NCBI GenBank assembly: GCA_018970325.1
Contig: JAGWWP010000002.1
Span: forward strand, 24,693-88,692
Source: Cyanobacteria bacterium REEB446
GTDB taxonomy: Bacteria > Cyanobacteriota > Vampirovibrionia > LMEP-6097
Direction of reading: 5' to 3'
Length of the DNA stretch: 64,000 bases
Positions 54,446-63,366 of this stretch are shown piece after piece. How positions within the stretch are numbered: the stretch's first letter is position 1; each line of letters starts with the position of its first letter. The notes beneath the pieces were generated by a model. It had not been told where the DNA came from and did not search any database. It saw only the letters and a list, made by a program, of their open reading frames with translations. The translations under genes and the position numbers were made by a program.

Positions 54446-54492
54446 GTATAAGATTATATCAATAAACTTTAGTGCTATTATTCTTTTTTGAT

Positions 54493-55380
54493 ATGAGTGG
54501 TCCCAACTTTTCAGACTTTTTCGGCTCAAATAATTCTAATCACTTTGATCCAGATGACTTTTTCGGCAAGCATAAAATAAAAATTTTTACCATTGTCGCA
54601 CTGTTTTTCGTAGTGCCTAATTTAGTTATCCTCGTAGGAGCTGGTCAGAGAGCTGTAATCTTTAATAGAGTTATCGGTATGGAACAGAGAGTACTAGAAG
54701 AGGGGATTCAGTTCGTAATTCCGATACTTCAACAAGCCACTATTTATAACGTAAGGGAGATTAGTTATATATTTAGTAATTCTGCTGAGCGTTCTAAAAA
54801 CGGAGCTAAGATACTTGGAAATTCTATAGATACTTTAACTTCAGATGGGCAGAATATTTCAGTAGATGTAACGGTAAGGGCTAGACCAGATTTTAAGCAG
54901 CTGTGGTGGCTGCATCAGCAGATCGGTAATGATAGTTATAATTCATATGTAAATAAAGTAATTAACCCAATAGTCAGAAGTATGGTTAGAGAGGTTATCG
55001 CAGGCTATACCGTTTCTGCTATTTATAGTGAAGATAGAAGGGTTATCGCTGATAAAATCTCTAAGTCTTTAGATAAACATTTAGCTAAATATAAAGTGGT
55101 TTTGACGGAGTTTCTTTTAGATGAAGTTACTTTCTCTGCTGCTTACCAGAGTGCGATTGAAGAGAAGCAGCGTGCAAGAATTGAATTAGATACTAAGGAT
55201 AATATTATTGTTGAAAAGCAGAATGACAGAGATGCTGTTATCACGAGAGCTGAAGGTGAGGCTGAAGCTATTAAATTAAAAGTAGATGCTTTAAATCGTT
55301 TCGGTAATTCCTATGTTAAGTACAGAAAAGCACAAGTTCTTGGTAAGAGAACTAAACTTATAATAAATGATGATCTGTAA
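54493..55380 (+). CDS. SPFH/band-7 (HflK/C-prohibitin-like) membrane protein 1
   Basis: N-terminal TM (IFTIVALFFVVPNLVILV) followed by an SPFH-domain pattern and a coiled-coil tail. The listed GTG at 54472 is a possible alternative start. Confidence 0.65.
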   Translation: MSGPNFSDFFGSNNSNHFDPDDFFGKHKIKIFTIVALFFVVPNLVILVGAGQRAVIFNRVIGMEQRVLEEGIQFVIPILQQATIYNVREISYIFSNSAERSKNGAKILGNSIDTLTSDGQNISVDVTVRARPDFKQLWWLHQQIGNDSYNSYVNKVINPIVRSMVREVIAGYTVSAIYSEDRRVIADKISKSLDKHLAKYKVVLTEFLLDEVTFSAAYQSAIEEKQRARIELDTKDNIIVEKQNDRDAVITRAEGEAEAIKLKVDALNRFGNSYVKYRKAQVLGKRTKLIINDDL

Positions 55381-55422
55381 TTCTTTGGGGAAGGTGTTTC
55401 TAGCTAAGTGCGAGGTTTATAA

Positions 55423-56313
55423 ATGAAAGATTTGAATATATTTGGATTAAAGATAAAAAAAGAAATGTTTTTGGTGATTTCTTTTGCTATTCTAGCTTTA
55501 CTCTCGCAGTCAATGCGTATCATTGACGTGGGCAGAACTGGTGTCATCTTTAACATTAAAGATGGTGTTCAGGATAAGCCTTTAAGAGAGGGTTTGCATT
55601 TTTTATTACCGTTTGTTCAGAGTCTAATAGTCTTTGATACACGCATTAATACTTATACTTTTACTAAAGATGCCATGGACCCAGGGCGCCTAGGGAATCC
55701 TATAGTTGCTAAGACTGGTGACGGTCAAATAGTCGGTATAGAGATGTCTATACTAACTCAGATGATTCAGGAAAGGGCTCCAGAAGTTTATCAAAAACTT
55801 AGAACTGATTATGCACCTGTACTTAAAGCTAAAACGGGTAAAGTAATGCAGGAAGTTATCGCAAGGCACGTAGCGGATGCTTTATATACTGAGGACACTA
55901 GGAAAATAGTTTCTAGCGAAGCTAAGGAATATTTATCTAAATCCTTTGCTGAGTCAGGTTTTAAACTGAATGATTTATTTATTAGAAGAATAGAATTTTC
56001 GCCAGAATATATAGAGGCGATAGAAAGTAAGCAGATCGCTTTACAGAAGGCTCAGCTAGCTCATATACGCAAGGAAATAGCTTTAAAAGAAAAGCTGATA
56101 TCTATTATTCAGGGTGAAGGTAACGCTAAGCAAGTAGAAGTCAAAGGACGTGCTATTCAGGCAAATCCGATGGTAGCTGATTTAGAGTATTTAGATGCTA
56201 TAGAAAACAATCCAGATGTGCCTGTAATCATCGGTTTGAAGGGAAATACTTTTGTTAATTTAGATAAATTACTTGAAAATACTTTACAGCCGCAGGCAAA
56301 GAAAAAACAGTAG
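55423..56313 (+). CDS. SPFH/band-7 membrane protein 2
   Basis: N-terminal TM plus an SPFH-domain pattern. It pairs with the preceding gene as in hflK/hflC. Confidence 0.65.
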   Translation: MKDLNIFGLKIKKEMFLVISFAILALLSQSMRIIDVGRTGVIFNIKDGVQDKPLREGLHFLLPFVQSLIVFDTRINTYTFTKDAMDPGRLGNPIVAKTGDGQIVGIEMSILTQMIQERAPEVYQKLRTDYAPVLKAKTGKVMQEVIARHVADALYTEDTRKIVSSEAKEYLSKSFAESGFKLNDLFIRRIEFSPEYIEAIESKQIALQKAQLAHIRKEIALKEKLISIIQGEGNAKQVEVKGRAIQANPMVADLEYLDAIENNPDVPVIIGLKGNTFVNLDKLLENTLQPQAKKKQ

Positions 56314-56363: not shown

Positions 56364-57461
56364 ATGGTATTTAGAGGTTTAAAAACATGGCTGCCATCTG
56401 ACGTTAGAAAGCAGCTCGCGATAAAAAATAAGCTGGTAGCTCTTTATGAAAAATGGTCTTATGAGCCAATAGTAGTGCAGAGTTTAGTAGATTTAGATGT
56501 TATAAATAGGGCGAATAAAAAATTTACCGATAAAACTTTTACATTTCTAGATAAAGATGGTGAGACTCTTGCTCTGAGAACAGAGATGACTCAGCCTATC
56601 GCTAAGGCGATAGCAGGCAGGGCTCAAGAACTTCAGTTCCCAGTGAAGCTTTACTATAACGCTTCTGTCTATCGTTATAAAGGCACTCCTACTGATGAAT
56701 CTAGAGAAATACAGCAAGTCGGCATAGAGTATGTCGGTGCTAAAGCTGAAGAGAATTTTTCCGATTATGAAGTACTGCAACTAATGATAGATTCTATTGA
56801 GGGGTTAGGCGTAAGTGATTATCAAATATGCATCACCGACGCTAAAATCTGGCATAGCTTATTTACTAAATTTAACAAACCAGTCCCAGTAATCAGTTCA
56901 GAGGCTTCCTCTAGCCATGATTTAATTACTAAGGCTTATAACCTTTTACTTAAAGGTGAATTTGTCGCATTTGAAAAATTAGCTGCTGAAGAAAGTTTTC
57001 TTAAGTGTCTTTATAGCCGAGAGCAAATAAGCTTATCTATTCCAAATGAAGAGAAGTTGAAAAGAGTTGAGAAGGATTTAGGTTTAGATTTAAGTCACTT
57101 AAAGAGTTTGGCTCAGCTTTCTTCTAAAATAGTCTTCGCGCCTTATCAGTGTCCAGATCTAAAGCTCTATACAGGACTGCATTTTAAGCTGTTAATTAAA
57201 GGACAGGGTAATGATATCGCTATGGGTGGTAGATACGATAATCTATATTCAAGCTTTGGTATCGATCTGCCAGCGATAGGTTTCGCTTTTTATGTGCAAA
57301 GATTAATTTCAGCATTATCTAATTTAGATCTTTTAGATAATTTTTCTACTGATAAGCTTCCGAAGAAGCTTTCTCCAGCTACTAAAGAATGGGGGGATGT
57401 TTATAAAGCAGCTCAGCTTGAGTTTGAGAAAGGAGCGAATGTTTTAATATGCAACAAGTGA
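56364..57461 (+). CDS. hisZ: ATP phosphoribosyltransferase regulatory subunit (HisRS-like, no anticodon-binding domain)
   Basis: Class II aaRS-like catalytic core (motif-2-like LRTEMTQP, GGRYD) without a C-terminal anticodon domain. It overlaps hisG by 13 nt. Confidence 0.7.
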   Translation: MVFRGLKTWLPSDVRKQLAIKNKLVALYEKWSYEPIVVQSLVDLDVINRANKKFTDKTFTFLDKDGETLALRTEMTQPIAKAIAGRAQELQFPVKLYYNASVYRYKGTPTDESREIQQVGIEYVGAKAEENFSDYEVLQLMIDSIEGLGVSDYQICITDAKIWHSLFTKFNKPVPVISSEASSSHDLITKAYNLLLKGEFVAFEKLAAEESFLKCLYSREQISLSIPNEEKLKRVEKDLGLDLSHLKSLAQLSSKIVFAPYQCPDLKLYTGLHFKLLIKGQGNDIAMGGRYDNLYSSFGIDLPAIGFAFYVQRLISALSNLDLLDNFSTDKLPKKLSPATKEWGDVYKAAQLEFEKGANVLICNK

Positions 57462-58087
57462 AAATAGCTTTATCTAAAGGCGCTCTTTTAGAAGGTGCTA
57501 TAGAGTTTTTTAGTAAAGCTGGTATTGAAATTGAAAATGGTGAAGATGCGAAACGTAAATTAATTCGCCGCAGTACTATTCATAATGAGGCTTTTAAAGA
57601 CTATGATATTCAATTCCTTATGGTAAGAGGGCATGATGTGCCAGTCTATGTAGAACATGGTGCTGCTGACTTCGGTATAGTAGGGCTAGACGTGATTTTA
57701 GATTCTAGGGCTAAGGTGCATCAGCTTCAGGATTTAAAATATGGGGCTTGTGATCTCTGTGTCTGTTCTGTGCAAGGCAAGTATAAGAGTGTCTCTGAGC
57801 TGCCTAGCTATACACGTGTTGCAACGACCTTTCCTAATTTAGCGAAAGATTTTTTTCACCAGCGCGCGCTTGAAGTTGAGATTATTAATCTTTATGGTTC
57901 TGTAGAACTCGCACCGCTTACTGATCTTACCGATGTGATTATAGATTTAGTGGCTACAGGAAAGACTTTAAAGGAAAATGGCTTAGAGCCTATTCATAAA
58001 ATTATGCATTGTACTGCTCATTTAATTGCTAATCCTACGGCGTTTGAGTTTTATAAGGGGTTTTTTGCTGGGCTTGTTGGGGAGTGA
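57449..58087 (+). CDS. hisG: ATP phosphoribosyltransferase (short form)
   Basis: MQQVKIALSKGALLEGAIEFFSKAGIEI...VATGKTLKENGL. The 212-aa short HisG needs HisZ. Confidence 0.85.
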   Translation: MQQVKIALSKGALLEGAIEFFSKAGIEIENGEDAKRKLIRRSTIHNEAFKDYDIQFLMVRGHDVPVYVEHGAADFGIVGLDVILDSRAKVHQLQDLKYGACDLCVCSVQGKYKSVSELPSYTRVATTFPNLAKDFFHQRALEVEIINLYGSVELAPLTDLTDVIIDLVATGKTLKENGLEPIHKIMHCTAHLIANPTAFEFYKGFFAGLVGE

Positions 58088-58096
58088 GTATGGGAT

Positions 58097-59551
58097 ATGT
58101 TTGAGCAGGCTTTTAAAAATATAGATGATATTCTTCACAAGGATGCAGGAGCTTCTAGTGAACTGGATTATGTAGAACAGAGTTCTTGGGTATTATTTCT
58201 AAAATATTTAGATGATTTAGAGAAAGATAGAAAGACTGAAGCTGAACTAGCAGGGAAAGAGTATAAATTTATTATAGAGCCAGAATATAGGTGGGAAACA
58301 TGGTCTGCACCTAAAAAAGAAGACGGTAAGCTAGATCATAATAAAGCACTTACAGGTGATGATTTAAAAAAATTTATAAATGAAAAATTATTTCCTTATC
58401 TGAAACGGTTTAGGCAAAACGCAGAAAATGCAGATACCATAGAATACAAGATAGGCGAGATTTTCAGTGAAATTAATAACAAAATCCAAAGTGGTTATGT
58501 CTTAAGAGATGTTCTGAATATTATTGATGGTCTTCGCTTTCGTTCTCAGGAAGAGAAACATGAGCTATCGCATTTATATGAAACTAAAATTAAAAACATG
58601 GGTAATGCAGGACGTAATGGAGGTGAATATTACACCCCTCGTTCACTTATTAAAACTATAGTTAAAGTAATAGCACCAAAGATTGGAAATAAAATTTATG
58701 ATGGTGCAGCTGGTTCTGCTGGCTTTTTGGTAGAGTCTTTCGATTACTTAAGAACCTCTAAAAAACTTTCTACCGAAGATTTAGAAATATTACAGAAAAG
58801 AACTTTTTATGGCAAAGAGAAAAAATCTTTAGCTTATATAATCGGCATCATGAATATGATACTTCACGGGATTGAAGCTCCAAATATTATTCATACTAAT
58901 ACTCTTGCAGAGAACATCGCAGATATTCAAGAAAAAGATCGTTATGATGTAATATTGGCTAATCCTCCCTTCGGTGGTAAAGAAAGATCGGAAGTGCAGC
59001 AGAATTTTCCTATTAAAACAGGAGAGACAGCTTTTCTTTTTTTACAGCATTTTATTAAAATTTTAAAAGCTGGTGGTAAAGCAGCTATAGTTATAAAAAA
59101 TACTTTTTTATCTAACACTGATACTGCTTCAATTTCACTCAGGAAGTATCTTTTAGAGACTTGTGATTTACATACTATTTTAGATTTACCAGGTGGTACT
59201 TTTACTGGTGCTGGAGTTAAAACAATAGTATTGTTTTTTGAGAAAGGCTCTTCCACTCAGAAGATTTGGTATTATCAGTTAAACCTTAATCGTAATCTAG
59301 GTAAGACTAATCCACTTACGGAGAGTGATCTAGTAGATTTCATTACACTACAGCAGACTAAATCTGATTCTGAAAACTCTTGGACGCTTAAAGTCTCTGA
59401 TATAGATCTTGATACTTATGATTTATCAGTTAAGAATCCTAATCGTAATAATGAAGTAATTTTACGTGAGCCTAAAGAGATTCTAGAAGAAATTAAAAAG
59501 CTTGATCAAGAAAGTGAGATGATATTAGAGCGAATAGGAGCCTTACTGTGA
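58097..59551 (+). CDS. hsdM: Type I restriction-modification system N6-adenine DNA methyltransferase subunit
   Basis: N-terminal HsdM_N pattern (VLFLKYLDD), an AdoMet motif I region, and the catalytic LANPPFGG. It starts 9 nt after hisG. Confidence 0.85.
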   Translation: MFEQAFKNIDDILHKDAGASSELDYVEQSSWVLFLKYLDDLEKDRKTEAELAGKEYKFIIEPEYRWETWSAPKKEDGKLDHNKALTGDDLKKFINEKLFPYLKRFRQNAENADTIEYKIGEIFSEINNKIQSGYVLRDVLNIIDGLRFRSQEEKHELSHLYETKIKNMGNAGRNGGEYYTPRSLIKTIVKVIAPKIGNKIYDGAAGSAGFLVESFDYLRTSKKLSTEDLEILQKRTFYGKEKKSLAYIIGIMNMILHGIEAPNIIHTNTLAENIADIQEKDRYDVILANPPFGGKERSEVQQNFPIKTGETAFLFLQHFIKILKAGGKAAIVIKNTFLSNTDTASISLRKYLLETCDLHTILDLPGGTFTGAGVKTIVLFFEKGSSTQKIWYYQLNLNRNLGKTNPLTESDLVDFITLQQTKSDSENSWTLKVSDIDLDTYDLSVKNPNRNNEVILREPKEILEEIKKLDQESEMILERIGALL

Positions 59552-60387
59552 CAGAAGATTTAAGTGTTTTTGAAGACTATAAAATTAGACGAATCTATGA
59601 TGAAGAAAAAGAGATTTGGTATTTTTCAGTTATCGATATTATTCAGATACTCACAGAGCAGGAAGATTATCAGAAAGCCAGAAAATACTGGAATAAGCTT
59701 AAAGAAAGGCTAAAAGAAGAGGGTTCTGAACTGGTGACATTTTGTCACCAGTTGAAAATGCCAGCTAGTGATGGAAAATTGCGAAATACTGATGTCGCAG
59801 CACCAGAGACACTTTTAAGGCTTATTCAGTCGGTTCCTAGTCCTAAAGCTGAGCCTGTTAAATTATGGCTTGCTAAGGTTGGCTATGAACGTATGCAAGA
59901 GATGGCAGATCCAGAACTGTCTTTAGATCGTGCTCGTGATACTTGGCAGAAACATGGACGCAGTGAAAAGTGGATTCAGCAGAGGATGATGGGGCAGGAG
60001 ACCCGTAATAAGCTTACTGACTACTGGGATAAGGCTGGCATTAAGAAAGGTCAAGAATACGCTATCTTAACGAATATTATTCATCAAGAATGGGCTGGGC
60101 TTAGTGTGAAAGAGCATAAAGCTCTGAAAAAATTAAAGACACAGAATCTTAGAGATCATATGAGTGAGGCTGAGTTAATATTTACAGCTCTAGCAGAGCT
60201 TTCCACGAGGCAAATCGCTGAAACGATGGAAGCTAAAGGGATGCAAGAGAATAAGGCTGCAAGTAAACAGGGAGGGGGTATAGCAAAGAAAGCTAGGTTG
60301 GAGCTGGAAGAGAAGACGGGGAAGAAGGTTATTTCAGAAGGTAGTTATTTAGAGGGGGAGAAGCAGGTTAAGGGAAAGAAAAAGTAA
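59548..60387 (+). CDS. Bro-N domain protein (DinD-like; R-M-associated)
   Basis: N-terminal FEDYKIRRIYDEEKEIWYFSVIDIIQILTE fits the Bro-N/antirepressor N-domain pattern. The GTG start overlaps the hsdM TGA (cTGTGAca). Confidence 0.55.
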   Translation: MTEDLSVFEDYKIRRIYDEEKEIWYFSVIDIIQILTEQEDYQKARKYWNKLKERLKEEGSELVTFCHQLKMPASDGKLRNTDVAAPETLLRLIQSVPSPKAEPVKLWLAKVGYERMQEMADPELSLDRARDTWQKHGRSEKWIQQRMMGQETRNKLTDYWDKAGIKKGQEYAILTNIIHQEWAGLSVKEHKALKKLKTQNLRDHMSEAELIFTALAELSTRQIAETMEAKGMQENKAASKQGGGIAKKARLELEEKTGKKVISEGSYLEGEKQVKGKKK

Positions 60388-60389
60388 TT

Positions 60390-61604
60390 ATGGTAACAAA
60401 GGTTACTAAAAAACCTGATGGTGGTTATTATGCGATTAAAGGATTTGCATATCAAATTGATAAGGCTATGTTAGAGCTATTAGATACAAAAAAATCTGAA
60501 GCAGAGATATTTATTGAAAATATTCAAGATATTGATTCAGAAAGCTTTGTAATGCAAATAAAATATAAAGAAACACAAAAATTTAGTAACTCTAAAATAA
60601 AAGAACCAGTAATTCAATTAATTGATGAGTTTTTAAATAATAAGAATGAATCTAAAAAATATTACCTCTATTGTTTTTTCAAAGATCGTAATGCCACAGA
60701 TACAGGAAGCTTATCATTAGAGGAATTAAATAAAATTCTTGGGAAGAAATCTAATCAATATGAGGATGAAGATAAAAATTCCTTTTTGGAAAATTTTAAA
60801 TTAGATTTTTCGCCTAGCTTTCAAGAGCAATTTGATAAAGTTATTGAAAAAATTAACAGTACCTTCGGAAGTTCTAATCAGAAGGAAGCGATGTTTTATT
60901 ATTCACAGATTGACTATCAAATTAGAAAAATCATTCTTAATAACCCAAATCCTCAAAGTCGAAAATGCAACAAGAAGGAAATTATAGAGATAGTAAAAAG
61001 AAACAAAGAGATTATTTTCAATTCTAGCTTCCAAGAGTATTTGGGTAAGGAAGCTTATTTTAAGTTCATTGCTTCTAAATGTCAATCTCCAAATAAACAG
61101 CAAGAGAATTGTTTTTTATTTGGTCATATTGAGGATTCTAAGGGTTTATCTATCCAGTCTTTACTTGAAGAGTTAGTCATATACTATTTCACGAAAGCTA
61201 ACTATGAAATAAAGCCATTGGTCTTTATCTTTCAAGATAAAGAGAAAGCGAATACAGTAAAAAAACATTTTATAAGAAAGGAACTTTTTTTTAATGACGG
61301 TTATGAATCAATAGAATTTAATCATAAAGCATTTTCAAGAAAAGCATTAACGAAACGCAAAATGCTTAAGAACGAAAAACCCTCTGATACTCTTCAGGAC
61401 ATTTCATTTAAAGCTAGAATCATTTCTCTGGAGTCCATTCAAGGCACTTCTGACTTCAATTACACGCCAGATCGACTCTATTTATTTGATTGTGATATTG
61501 ATAAAGTAAGCCCGCAATCTTTATTAAAGGGCAATATAACAAATACAGAAGGGCTAAGCACACTTGATATTCAAAAGTTATTCATAAGTAAAAAAGGAGT
61601 TTAG
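60390..61604 (+). CDS. Hypothetical protein with an N-terminal PD-(D/E)xK-like nuclease motif; candidate DUF4297/Cap4-nuclease-like partner of the downstream HerA ATPase
   Basis: The N-terminus GGYYAIKGFAYQIDKA...EIFIENIQDIDSES FVMQIKYKE gives G-F-x-YQ, then E..D.D...Q.K spacing like the D/E-x-K restriction-endonuclease fold. About 250 aa of uncharacterised helical C-terminus follow. The start is 2 nt after the upstream stop. Confidence 0.4.
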   Translation: MVTKVTKKPDGGYYAIKGFAYQIDKAMLELLDTKKSEAEIFIENIQDIDSESFVMQIKYKETQKFSNSKIKEPVIQLIDEFLNNKNESKKYYLYCFFKDRNATDTGSLSLEELNKILGKKSNQYEDEDKNSFLENFKLDFSPSFQEQFDKVIEKINSTFGSSNQKEAMFYYSQIDYQIRKIILNNPNPQSRKCNKKEIIEIVKRNKEIIFNSSFQEYLGKEAYFKFIASKCQSPNKQQENCFLFGHIEDSKGLSIQSLLEELVIYYFTKANYEIKPLVFIFQDKEKANTVKKHFIRKELFFNDGYESIEFNHKAFSRKALTKRKMLKNEKPSDTLQDISFKARIISLESIQGTSDFNYTPDRLYLFDCDIDKVSPQSLLKGNITNTEGLSTLDIQKLFISKKGV

Positions 61605-61608
61605 TACA

Positions 61609-63342
61609 GTGGATTCAGACAATTTTAAAATTATAAATGTTTCAAAAGATTCAGTAACAATAGAGATATTAGATTCTGCTAAATTTGATGATCAGTTTAA
61701 TATCGGAAGTTATATAAAAATCCCATATAAAAATAAAGAAAACTATTTTATTATCGGAATTATTAATGATTATAAAGTTAAGAATCTTGACGCTGCAAAT
61801 CCAGATGGTGAGAGCCTTAGTAATCATTTTGTTATAAATGTGCAGTTAATTGGATCTTACGGCAAGGAGAAGGAAAAGTTTATTTTCACAAGAGGCTCTC
61901 ACGGAATTCCACTACCCCCAAGCAATGGCATTGAGCTGTTATCTAAGGACGATTATGAAAATATATATGGCTCAAGTATTAAAGACTCTCAGAGATTTAC
62001 TTTCTCTAAATTGTTACAGAATGGCGGAATACCAGTACGTTGCAATGGCAATAAATTTTTTAATAAGCATTTTGCCATTGTTGGCTCTACTGGATCTGGT
62101 AAATCTCATACTGTAGCATCGGTTTTACAACAAGCAATCAAGGAAAAGGAAGAAGGCTTTGAGGGGCTTAATAATTCCCATATTATTATTTTTGATATCC
62201 ATGGAGAATATCAAAAAGCTTTCCCTGAGGGTAATCACATCAATTCAGAGAATATAAAGCTCCCTTACTGGCTATTTGACAGTGATGAATTAAGTGATTT
62301 ATTTATAGAGAGTAGTGAAAGCAATTCTCACAATCAAGTTTCCCAGTTTCGTTTTGCGGTGACCCAAAATAAGAAAAAGCATAATCCATTACAAGCTCAG
62401 GAAAAAATATATTTTGATTCACCCTTCAAATTTAGTATTGATGAGGTAATTAACTATATTAAAAATATTAATAGTGAGTTAATTAACAAGAAAAATTCAA
62501 GAATTCCTGAAGACAAGACGGGTAAAAAGTTTCTTAATAGATTACCAGAATATTTTAATCAAGAATATAGCTTTGACAAGACAAATGGTGATTTTGTTAA
62601 AGGTCCTTATACTGATGATTTTGAGCGTTTTATACTCAGACTGGAAGCTACCATAAAGAATCCTCGTCTGAAATTTTTATTCGAGAATGTAGATAATTTT
62701 TCTTTAGAAAGTGTGCTCAAACAATTTTTAGGTTACGAAAACAAGAAAGCAAATATTACAGTTATTGATCTATCTGGTATTCCTTTTGAAGTTTTAAGTA
62801 TTACAGTGTCTTTAATTTCAAGAATATTGTTTGAATATGGCTACTATTATAAAAAAATGTTGTCGGAGAGAGAGCTTTGTGAAACACCAATTCTGCTGGT
62901 TTATGAAGAAGCTCATAAATATGTTCCAAGAAGTGATCTCGTTAAATATCGTGCATCAAAGAATGCTATAGAGAGAATTGCGAAAGAAGGTAGAAAGTAT
63001 GGTGTTACTCTAGGCATTGTAAGTCAGAGACCATCTGAGATTTCAGAAACAATTTTTTCTCAGTGTAATAATTTCCTGGTAATGAGATTAACTAATCCTG
63101 ATGATCAAAATTATGTAAAGAAGCTCTTACCTGATACCCTTGCTGATTTTACAAACCAATTATCTTCATTACAAGCAGGAGAAGCATTAGTGATTGGTGA
63201 ATCTATTGTATTGCCATCTCTGATAAAAATAAATTTCCCTGAAAATGAACCTGAATCTACAGATATACCATATCTAGAACTTTGGAAACAAAAATGGAAA
63301 GACGTTGATTTTGATTCAGTTGCCAAAAAATGGAAGTTATAG
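61609..63342 (+). CDS. HerA/FtsK-superfamily (DUF87-type) ATPase
   Basis: Walker A FAIVGSTGSGKSH, Walker B ILLVYEEAHKYVP, and the downstream GRKYGVTLGIVSQRPSEISETIFSQCNNFLVMRLTNPDDQ typical of HerA-like helicases. GTG start 4 nt after the upstream stop, with AAGGAG 10 nt upstream. Confidence 0.7.
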   Translation: MDSDNFKIINVSKDSVTIEILDSAKFDDQFNIGSYIKIPYKNKENYFIIGIINDYKVKNLDAANPDGESLSNHFVINVQLIGSYGKEKEKFIFTRGSHGIPLPPSNGIELLSKDDYENIYGSSIKDSQRFTFSKLLQNGGIPVRCNGNKFFNKHFAIVGSTGSGKSHTVASVLQQAIKEKEEGFEGLNNSHIIIFDIHGEYQKAFPEGNHINSENIKLPYWLFDSDELSDLFIESSESNSHNQVSQFRFAVTQNKKKHNPLQAQEKIYFDSPFKFSIDEVINYIKNINSELINKKNSRIPEDKTGKKFLNRLPEYFNQEYSFDKTNGDFVKGPYTDDFERFILRLEATIKNPRLKFLFENVDNFSLESVLKQFLGYENKKANITVIDLSGIPFEVLSITVSLISRILFEYGYYYKKMLSERELCETPILLVYEEAHKYVPRSDLVKYRASKNAIERIAKEGRKYGVTLGIVSQRPSEISETIFSQCNNFLVMRLTNPDDQNYVKKLLPDTLADFTNQLSSLQAGEALVIGESIVLPSLIKINFPENEPESTDIPYLELWKQKWKDVDFDSVAKKWKL

Positions 63343-63366
63343 AATGTGTCAGTGTGGAGATAAGCT

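Follow-up and report, generated by a model that had tools for sequence, protein, structure and literature searches.

Two-gene anti-phage systems that couple a DUF4297 effector to a HerA ATPase have been solved structurally in Escherichia coli (8xau/8xav/8zgi; An et al. 2024, PMC11291478) and, under the name 'HerA-DUF', in Bacillus sp. HMH5848 (9c1m/9c5x; Rish et al., 10.1101/2024.10.24.620088). In these studied systems, DUF4297 on its own forms dimers or oligomers of weak activity, and HerA on its own is a hexamer in the shape of a split spiral; co-expression of the two yields a complex of about 1 MDa, in which two six-membered layers of DUF4297 sit on a planar HerA ring (PMC11291478; 10.1101/2024.10.24.620088). 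The C-terminal domain (CTD) of DUF4297 makes the contacts within and between the layers of the dodecamer and touches the HAS domain of HerA, the nuclease domains of the top layer dimerise into a DNA clamp, and both the ATPase and a non-specific double-stranded DNA (dsDNA) nuclease are switched on (PMC11291478; 10.1101/2024.10.24.620088). Phage and host DNA are then both lost in infected cells, which amounts to abortive infection (PMC11291478; 10.1101/2024.10.24.620088); the trigger of the E. coli and Bacillus systems is not known (PMC11291478). Here we analyse a 64,000-nucleotide stretch of contig JAGWWP010000002.1 of Cyanobacteria bacterium REEB446 (hereafter the window) and report that an open reading frame (ORF) for 404 amino acids (aa) is very probably the DUF4297 effector gene of a two-gene DUF4297–HerA anti-phage system, with a Cap4-like nuclease N terminus and a SIR2-like CTD, and with complex formation, activation and abortive outcome proposed by analogy. 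We take the pair to be of the 'Gao_Her_DUF' type.

The effector gene occupies positions 60390..61604 of the window on the + strand, as do all features described below unless stated otherwise, and starts with ATG; the coordinates and length given in a preliminary description of the locus were exact. The ORF is a real, conserved gene, because an identical protein of the metagenome-assembled genome (MAG) Cyanobacteria bacterium REEB446 is listed at NCBI as a 'hypothetical protein' and a homology search at E ≤ 1e-3 yielded 225 homologs. The sole opposite-strand ORF inside the gene (60903..61103, 66 aa) was unsupported and was treated as spurious. Family models and structure databases both point to DUF4297. 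The PADLOC DUF4297 model matches residues 15–331 (E 4.4e-29), and NCBIfam NF042945 (DUF4297_antiphage, 'DUF4297 family anti-phage-associated protein') matches residues 15–343 (4.2e-41, 141 bits). A single-sequence search of PDB sequences returned 8xav_G (2.5e-12) and 8ziq_A (1.4e-7), the DUF4297 chains of two solved DUF4297–HerA complexes. We also built a profile from an alignment of 46 homologs (A1; mean column identity 40%), which recovered all three solved DUF4297 proteins: 8xav_G over nearly its full length (4.7e-34), 8ziq_A (9.2e-24) and 9c1m_A (1.3e-20). The earlier suggestion of a DUF4297-like effector is thus borne out by PADLOC, NCBIfam and PDB profile matches and by a predicted fold that agrees with them.

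Four nucleotides after the DUF4297 stop, and preceded by a Shine–Dalgarno-like AAAGGAG, a GTG codon opens the gene for a HerA/DUF87 ATPase of 577 aa (61609..63342; Pfam PF01935, 5.1e-35). This adjacent, co-oriented HerA belongs to the DUF4297-associated subfamily. It matches PADLOC PDLC02188 at E 4.7e-208 and NCBIfam NF042944 (HerA_antiphage_2) with 713 bits, under the 850-bit equivalog cut-off of that model. Among PDB chains, the E. coli HerA 8xau_A was found at 1.4e-155, with residues 5–576 aligned on 8–569 of 571, and 9c1m_M and 8ziq_M were both found at 1.5e-129, whereas the SIR2-associated HerA 8j4u_M scored just 1.4e-27. The protein carries a Walker A motif (GSTGSGKS, residues 159–166) and a Walker B motif (ILLVYEE, residues 428–434). 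The pairing is conserved: of 75 screened genome loci encoding DUF4297 relatives, 70 have a HerA homolog immediately downstream on the same strand. At four of the five remaining loci the contig stops less than about 700 bp past the DUF4297 match, and at the fifth (L083) HerA was not found in the approximately 1.5 kb beyond a partial DUF4297 match. Flavobacterium johnsoniae, a Spirochaetes MAG and a metagenome contig each encode a homolog of about 40% identity, and in all three the pair adjoins integrase, relaxase or transposase genes.

An AlphaFold2 model computed on A1 (mean predicted local distance difference test score (pLDDT) 87.2; predicted template-modelling (pTM) score 0.81) predicts two domains. 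The first, comprising residues ~1–232 (60390..61085), is a Cap4-like PD-(D/E)xK nuclease domain with a helical extension and a linker. Its residues 12–97 form the α-β-β-β-α-β core typical of PD-(D/E)xK enzymes (α1 12–32, β1 39–42, β2 48–50, β3 53–60, α2 67–84 and β4 90–97). The second, comprising residues ~233–404 (61086..61604), is an α/β, SIR2-like ('UFO') domain predicted to serve oligomerisation and HerA docking. The authors of the solved DUF4297 structures report a Cap4-like nuclease domain and a SIR2-like C-terminal domain (PMC11291478; 10.1101/2024.10.24.620088), and the model reproduces both. In a Foldseek search of the PDB with the whole model, the first 13 matches were all DUF4297 chains (best 5.6e-19, probability 1.0). 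The fold ranking placed DUF4297 chains first, followed by the nuclease domains of Cap4, Avs3 and LmuA and then, for the C-terminal part, by SIR2-like domains. In the fold-comparison table, 9c1m_A (DUF4297) scored 15.7, the SeAvs3 nuclease domain 12.9, LmuA 12.6, Cap4 11.6 and 11.0 and HamA 8.5, and SIR2-like domains, including the SIR2 of SIR2–HerA complexes, scored 9.0, 8.1 and 6.8.

The preliminary description had read a PD-(D/E)xK-like catalytic core in the segment GFAYQ...EIFIENIQDIDSESFVMQIKYKE, which corresponds to residues 18–61 of the 404-aa protein, and the nuclease fold match together with invariant E43, D47, Q56 and K58 supports that call. Conservation and alignment to mutated E. 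coli residues define the motif E43-x3-D47-x8-Q56-x-K58-x2-E61 (codons at 60516..60572), in which E43, D47, Q56, K58 and E61 are invariant in 46/46 homologs of A1. A wider set of 48 sequences from a search of the whole library (identity to the query down to 18–25%, mean column identity 28%) retains G18, Q22, E43, D47, Q56, K58 and F132 as its sole invariant positions, so the anticipated conservation of the putative catalytic residues extends to homologs of about 20% identity. The residues originally proposed for substitution (D46/D48/K56) were misnumbered by one or two positions, the actual ones being E43, D47, D49, Q56 and K58, and the second aspartate of that list does not qualify as a conserved catalytic residue: D49 is replaced by asparagine in 23 of the 46 homologs. 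D47, Q56 and K58 align with D40, Q53 and K55 of E. coli DUF4297, in which D40A/Q53A/K55A lost phage defence and nuclease activity fell sharply on mutation of the conserved PD-(D/E)xK motif (PMC11291478). In the Bacillus protein, the counterparts of D47 and E61 are D41 and E59, which Rish et al. found to be needed for activity (10.1101/2024.10.24.620088), and Bacillus K61 falls on the non-conserved Q63. In the model, D47 lies just ahead of β2 and Q56-x-K58 lies within β3, which are the canonical positions. As judged from these alignments, the putative catalytic D...QxK of DUF4297 is present and conserved.

The region after the nuclease core had been described as helical, rich in K, E and N and free of any recognisable motif, and each of these statements holds in part. 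Residues ~110–230 are indeed mostly helical in the model, but the roughly 170 aa of residues ~235–404 are α/β and SIR2-like, with strands alternating with helices over residues 240–400. Together, K, E and N make up 27% of residues 151–404 against 22% in the long ORFs of the window, an excess that is present but mild, and that is consistent with the low G+C content of the gene (0.286, against a window mean of 0.353; herA, 0.315). The absence of a recognisable motif is true for Pfam, but the PADLOC and NCBIfam models reach residues 331 and 343, respectively. Within the CTD, the motif F-N-D-G-Y-E (residues 300–306; window 61287–61307) is strongly conserved, with D303 invariant and N302, G304 and E306 conserved in at least 90% of sequences; its counterpart in E. 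coli DUF4297 is FTDGYP. Foldseek aligned the model with the CTD-only PDB chains 9c5x_A, 8zir_D and 8zit_B at target-normalised template-modelling (TM) scores of 0.68–0.75 and about 4 Å (E 7.6e-6 to 2.8e-5). On the strength of the model, the C-terminal α/β domain appears to correspond to the oligomerisation and HerA-docking CTD of DUF4297, and the earlier expectation that this region would mediate assembly with HerA agrees, by analogy, with the solved complexes.

Several observations weigh against the DUF4297–HerA reading. The protein is divergent, sharing 17–20% identity with solved DUF4297 proteins in structural alignments, and its NF042945 score of 141 bits falls short of the 300-bit equivalog cut-off. 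A Pfam scan of the 404-aa protein gave 0 matches at E ≤ 1, PF14130 Cap4_nuclease (formerly DUF4297) included, and among its relatives PF14130 produced weak matches in 7/46, the best at E 0.015. The whole-chain TM-scores were 0.38–0.45, with a root-mean-square deviation above 10 Å. Moreover, a profile of the CTD alone (residues 233–404, 18 sequences) found no solved DUF4297 among PDB sequences; its match to CFAP20 (E 0.29) is at chance level and was rejected. These points can be placed as follows. Because the PF14130 matches among relatives are themselves so weak, Pfam is unable to settle membership either way. NF042945 and NF042944 are the top-scoring models and yet remain under their cut-offs, which indicates a divergent subfamily that is not named automatically. 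We attribute the low whole-chain TM-scores to motion about a putative mobile hinge between the domains, as a flexible hinge joins the two DUF4297 domains in the studied systems (PMC11291478; 10.1101/2024.10.24.620088). Since the CTD profile finds no DUF4297, equivalence of the CTD rests on predicted structure and not on sequence; it is structure, together with the PADLOC, NCBIfam and PDB profiles, that places the protein in the fold family. Taken together, the 404-aa protein is a divergent DUF4297 and an ordinary member of the already characterised DUF4297–HerA anti-phage system. Its family is large: a profile search of the whole library yielded 772 clusters (at 50% identity) at E ≤ 1e-3, and among the best 150 of these 772 most lengths are 366–430 aa, the others (134–303 aa) resembling fragments. 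A precomputed Pfam domain is present in 0 of 120 listed homologs (P0001–P0120). A sizeable DUF4297 clade is therefore missed both by Pfam annotation and at the equivalog cut-offs of NCBIfam.

A type I restriction–modification (R–M) operon encloses the pair and runs on one strand in the order hsdM, Bro-N/PDC-S13, DUF4297, herA, RhuM-Fic, hsdS, hsdR, that is, seven genes with three embedded cargoes and inter-gene gaps of −4 to +24 nt. The operon spans 58097–64000 of the window and continues in related contigs (L001, 5436–8077; L009, 5708–15566). The context genes outside the DUF4297–HerA system comprise hsdM (58097..59551; Pfam N6_Mtase 8.7e-61 and HsdM_N; PADLOC MTase_I 1.5e-159), a 279-aa Bro-N gene that is a PADLOC candidate (59548..60387; Pfam Bro-N 5.4e-8; PDC-S13 2.5e-122), and the 5′ part of the RhuM-Fic gene (63364..64000), which was read in frame up to the point at which it runs off the window. 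The full 329-aa RhuM-Fic gene is present in the near-identical contig L001, with Pfam Virulence_RhuM and Fic domains; further downstream, hsdS and hsdR are found in L001 and in the syntenic L009 and L012. A pattern scan of 57400–64000 for promoters and terminators found no excess over the shuffled expectation (25 against 24.7 and 4 against 3.1, respectively), and co-transcription of the pair with the operon is plausible.

The nesting is kept in relatives with DUF4297 85–89% identical (L009, L010 and L012), of which L012 is a 'Candidatus Caenarcaniphilales' MAG whose DUF4297 is 89% identical. In related MAG contigs the operon occupies the same chromosomal site, after the genes gap, two Band_7 genes, hisZ and hisG. 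The cargo and the specificity gene vary: L010, syntenic in other respects, lacks RhuM-Fic, and the hsdS of L012 shares only 41% identity. Nucleotide identities to L012/L009 are 0.92 for DUF4297 and 0.94 for herA, against 0.92–0.99 for neighbouring housekeeping genes; as the values for the pair lie within the housekeeping range, we rejected the idea that it had diverged unusually fast compared with its flanks or had been replaced as a cassette. Beyond these relatives, L011 (3–8169) holds hsdM, DUF4297, herA, a split hsdS, RhuM and hsdR around a DUF4297 that is 45% identical and was nested independently. DUF4297–HerA pairs of other lineages lie beside or inside type I R–M genes at L011, L037, L041, L044, L046, L050, L055, L056, L068, L074 and L085. 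An HsdM or HsdS homolog lies within 10 kb at 11/75 loci, as found by tblastn with the Hsd proteins of the window, a search that may miss distant Hsd families. A RhuM homolog directly follows herA at 7 loci, including a Methanosarcinales MAG (L046).

We also noted some features of the flanking genes. The Bro-N gene has a G+C content of 0.406, above the 0.29–0.33 of its neighbours, and overlaps the hsdM stop by 4 nt; its protein matches PDC-S13 almost end to end, and the gene stands beside DUF4297 in close relatives only. The tandem Band_7/SPFH-family genes (302 and 296 aa; window 54472–56313) lie between gap and hisZ and are kept in L009 and L010; a link to the defence locus is not evident.

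Three other explanations of the locus were weighed. The earlier description had allowed that the protein might represent an undescribed effector class paired with HerA, and it could also belong to another family of HerA partners, such as those of SIR2–HerA (Nezha) or NurA–HerA. This is almost certainly wrong, and the undescribed class is refuted: solved DUF4297 proteins come first in all sequence and fold searches, the HerA is nearest to DUF4297-associated HerA and far from its SIR2-associated counterpart, and Pfam, PADLOC and NCBIfam gave no SIR2 or NurA family match at E ≤ 1. In a SIR2 domain, a glycine-rich loop is the motif expected after the first strand; the corresponding segment here, CFLFGHIEDSKG (residues ~240–251, after the first strand of the CTD), lacks such a loop. 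Alternatively, the protein might be catalytically inactive and serve solely to regulate HerA, as a scaffold or sensor with a vestigial nuclease-like motif. The glutamine (Q56) where the canonical (D/E)xK has its second acidic residue, and the failure of the Pfam Cap4_nuclease model to recognise the protein, would fit this idea. However, QxK also occurs in the active E. coli enzyme, whose defence was abolished by D40A/Q53A/K55A, and in the 8ziq protein, and E43 and E61 provide acidic residues nearby. Invariance of E43, D47, Q56 and K58 across 48 sequences with 28% mean column identity would be unexpected for a vestigial site, and we regard a dead scaffold as highly improbable.

The genomic setting raises the question of whether the pair is autonomous, or whether it is coupled to the enclosing type I R–M system as an accessory nuclease–motor module dependent on HsdM/S/R for its expression or activity, or as a back-up when restriction fails. 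The position of the pair between hsdM and hsdS on one strand, with minimal gaps and no excess of promoters or terminators, is compatible with coupling, as are the retention of the nesting in L009, L010 and L012, its independent occurrence in L011 and the 11 loci with HsdM or HsdS nearby. In addition, for TgvAB, which is embedded in a type I R–M system, the whole cluster protected more strongly than the embedded genes alone (PMC11411939). By contrast, at about 85% of loci the tblastn search, with its caveat on distant Hsd families, detected no type I R–M neighbour within 10 kb, and in F. johnsoniae, the Spirochaetes MAG and others the pair is free-standing, beside mobile-element genes. The two-gene operon alone, expressed heterologously, defended E. 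coli K-12 from P1 and lambda (PMC11291478). Finally, embedding of other defence genes in type I R–M operons is documented (PMC11411939; Payne et al., 10.1101/2024.01.29.577857) and, for unrelated defence genes, common (10.1101/2024.01.29.577857). We therefore consider coupling improbable and favour an autonomous DUF4297–HerA pair. A narrower proposal is that this clade docks on HerA, or is switched on, otherwise than the E. coli and Bacillus systems, possibly in a way tied to the state of the enclosing R–M system. It is raised because the clade is invisible to Pfam, its CTD cannot be aligned by sequence, and it recurs in type I R–M operons, often with RhuM after herA; we hold it to be unlikely.

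For the preferred DUF4297–HerA reading, we propose the following mechanism. Residues ~1–230 would act as a Cap4-like PD-(D/E)xK dsDNA endonuclease with E43, D47 and Q56-x-K58 as its catalytic residues, and residues ~235–404 would form an α/β, SIR2-like domain lacking NADase motifs. If the solved complexes are a guide, the CTD would assemble DUF4297 into a dodecamer of two layers, seated on the HAS-domain face of a HerA hexamer, giving a 6:12 stoichiometry. Assembly may then activate both partners, bringing the top-layer nuclease domains into clamp-shaped dimers and flattening HerA into an ATPase-competent ring. Phage and host dsDNA would then be degraded in an ATP-dependent manner and without sequence specificity, with abortive infection as the expected outcome.

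The assignment turns a 'hypothetical protein' of a Caenarcaniphilales-type MAG into a DUF4297–HerA effector and has little significance beyond annotation. It carries a mild novelty, functionally speculative, in that the clade escapes standard domain annotation and recurs in type I R–M operons. The nested operon is a potential test case for an abortive-infection nuclease co-regulated with a first-line restriction system, and a different mode of docking or activation, if true, would bear on what triggers DUF4297–HerA.

Compared with systems that use related nuclease domains, namely Cap4 of CBASS, Avs3, Lamassu LmuA and Hachiman HamA, the protein has no SAVED, STAND, SMC-partner or helicase context and no CD-NTase gene; SAVED or CD-NTase was not found in the protein or the operon with Pfam, PADLOC or NCBIfam. 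Unlike in the Cap4-like nucleases, its regulatory domain is SIR2-like and its partner is HerA. It differs from SIR2–HerA (Nezha) in that the effector has a nuclease domain and the HerA is of the DUF4297-associated subfamily, and its SIR2-like domain has neither a SIR2 family match nor an NAD-binding loop. As in TgvAB of Vibrio cholerae VPI-2 (PMC11411939), a complete second system lies between same-strand hsd genes, but here the cargo is DUF4297–HerA with Bro-N (PDC-S13) and RhuM-Fic; a literature search did not find this embedded combination and returned general precedents alone. Relative to the solved DUF4297–HerA systems, among which we also compared 8ziq/8zir/8zit, the D47–Q56 hairpin is shorter (8 residues rather than 12), identity is about 17–20%, the NCBIfam score is under the cut-off, PF14130 does not match and the CTD is recognisable by predicted structure only. 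Furthermore, a type I R–M operon encloses the pair. In other respects the locus resembles those systems: DUF4297 precedes HerA in gene order, the proteins measure 404 and 577 aa against 394–436 and 571–617, a Cap4-like nuclease domain is joined to an α/β CTD, E...D...QxK is conserved, and HerA aligns end to end, finishing within two residues of the solved HerA C terminus.
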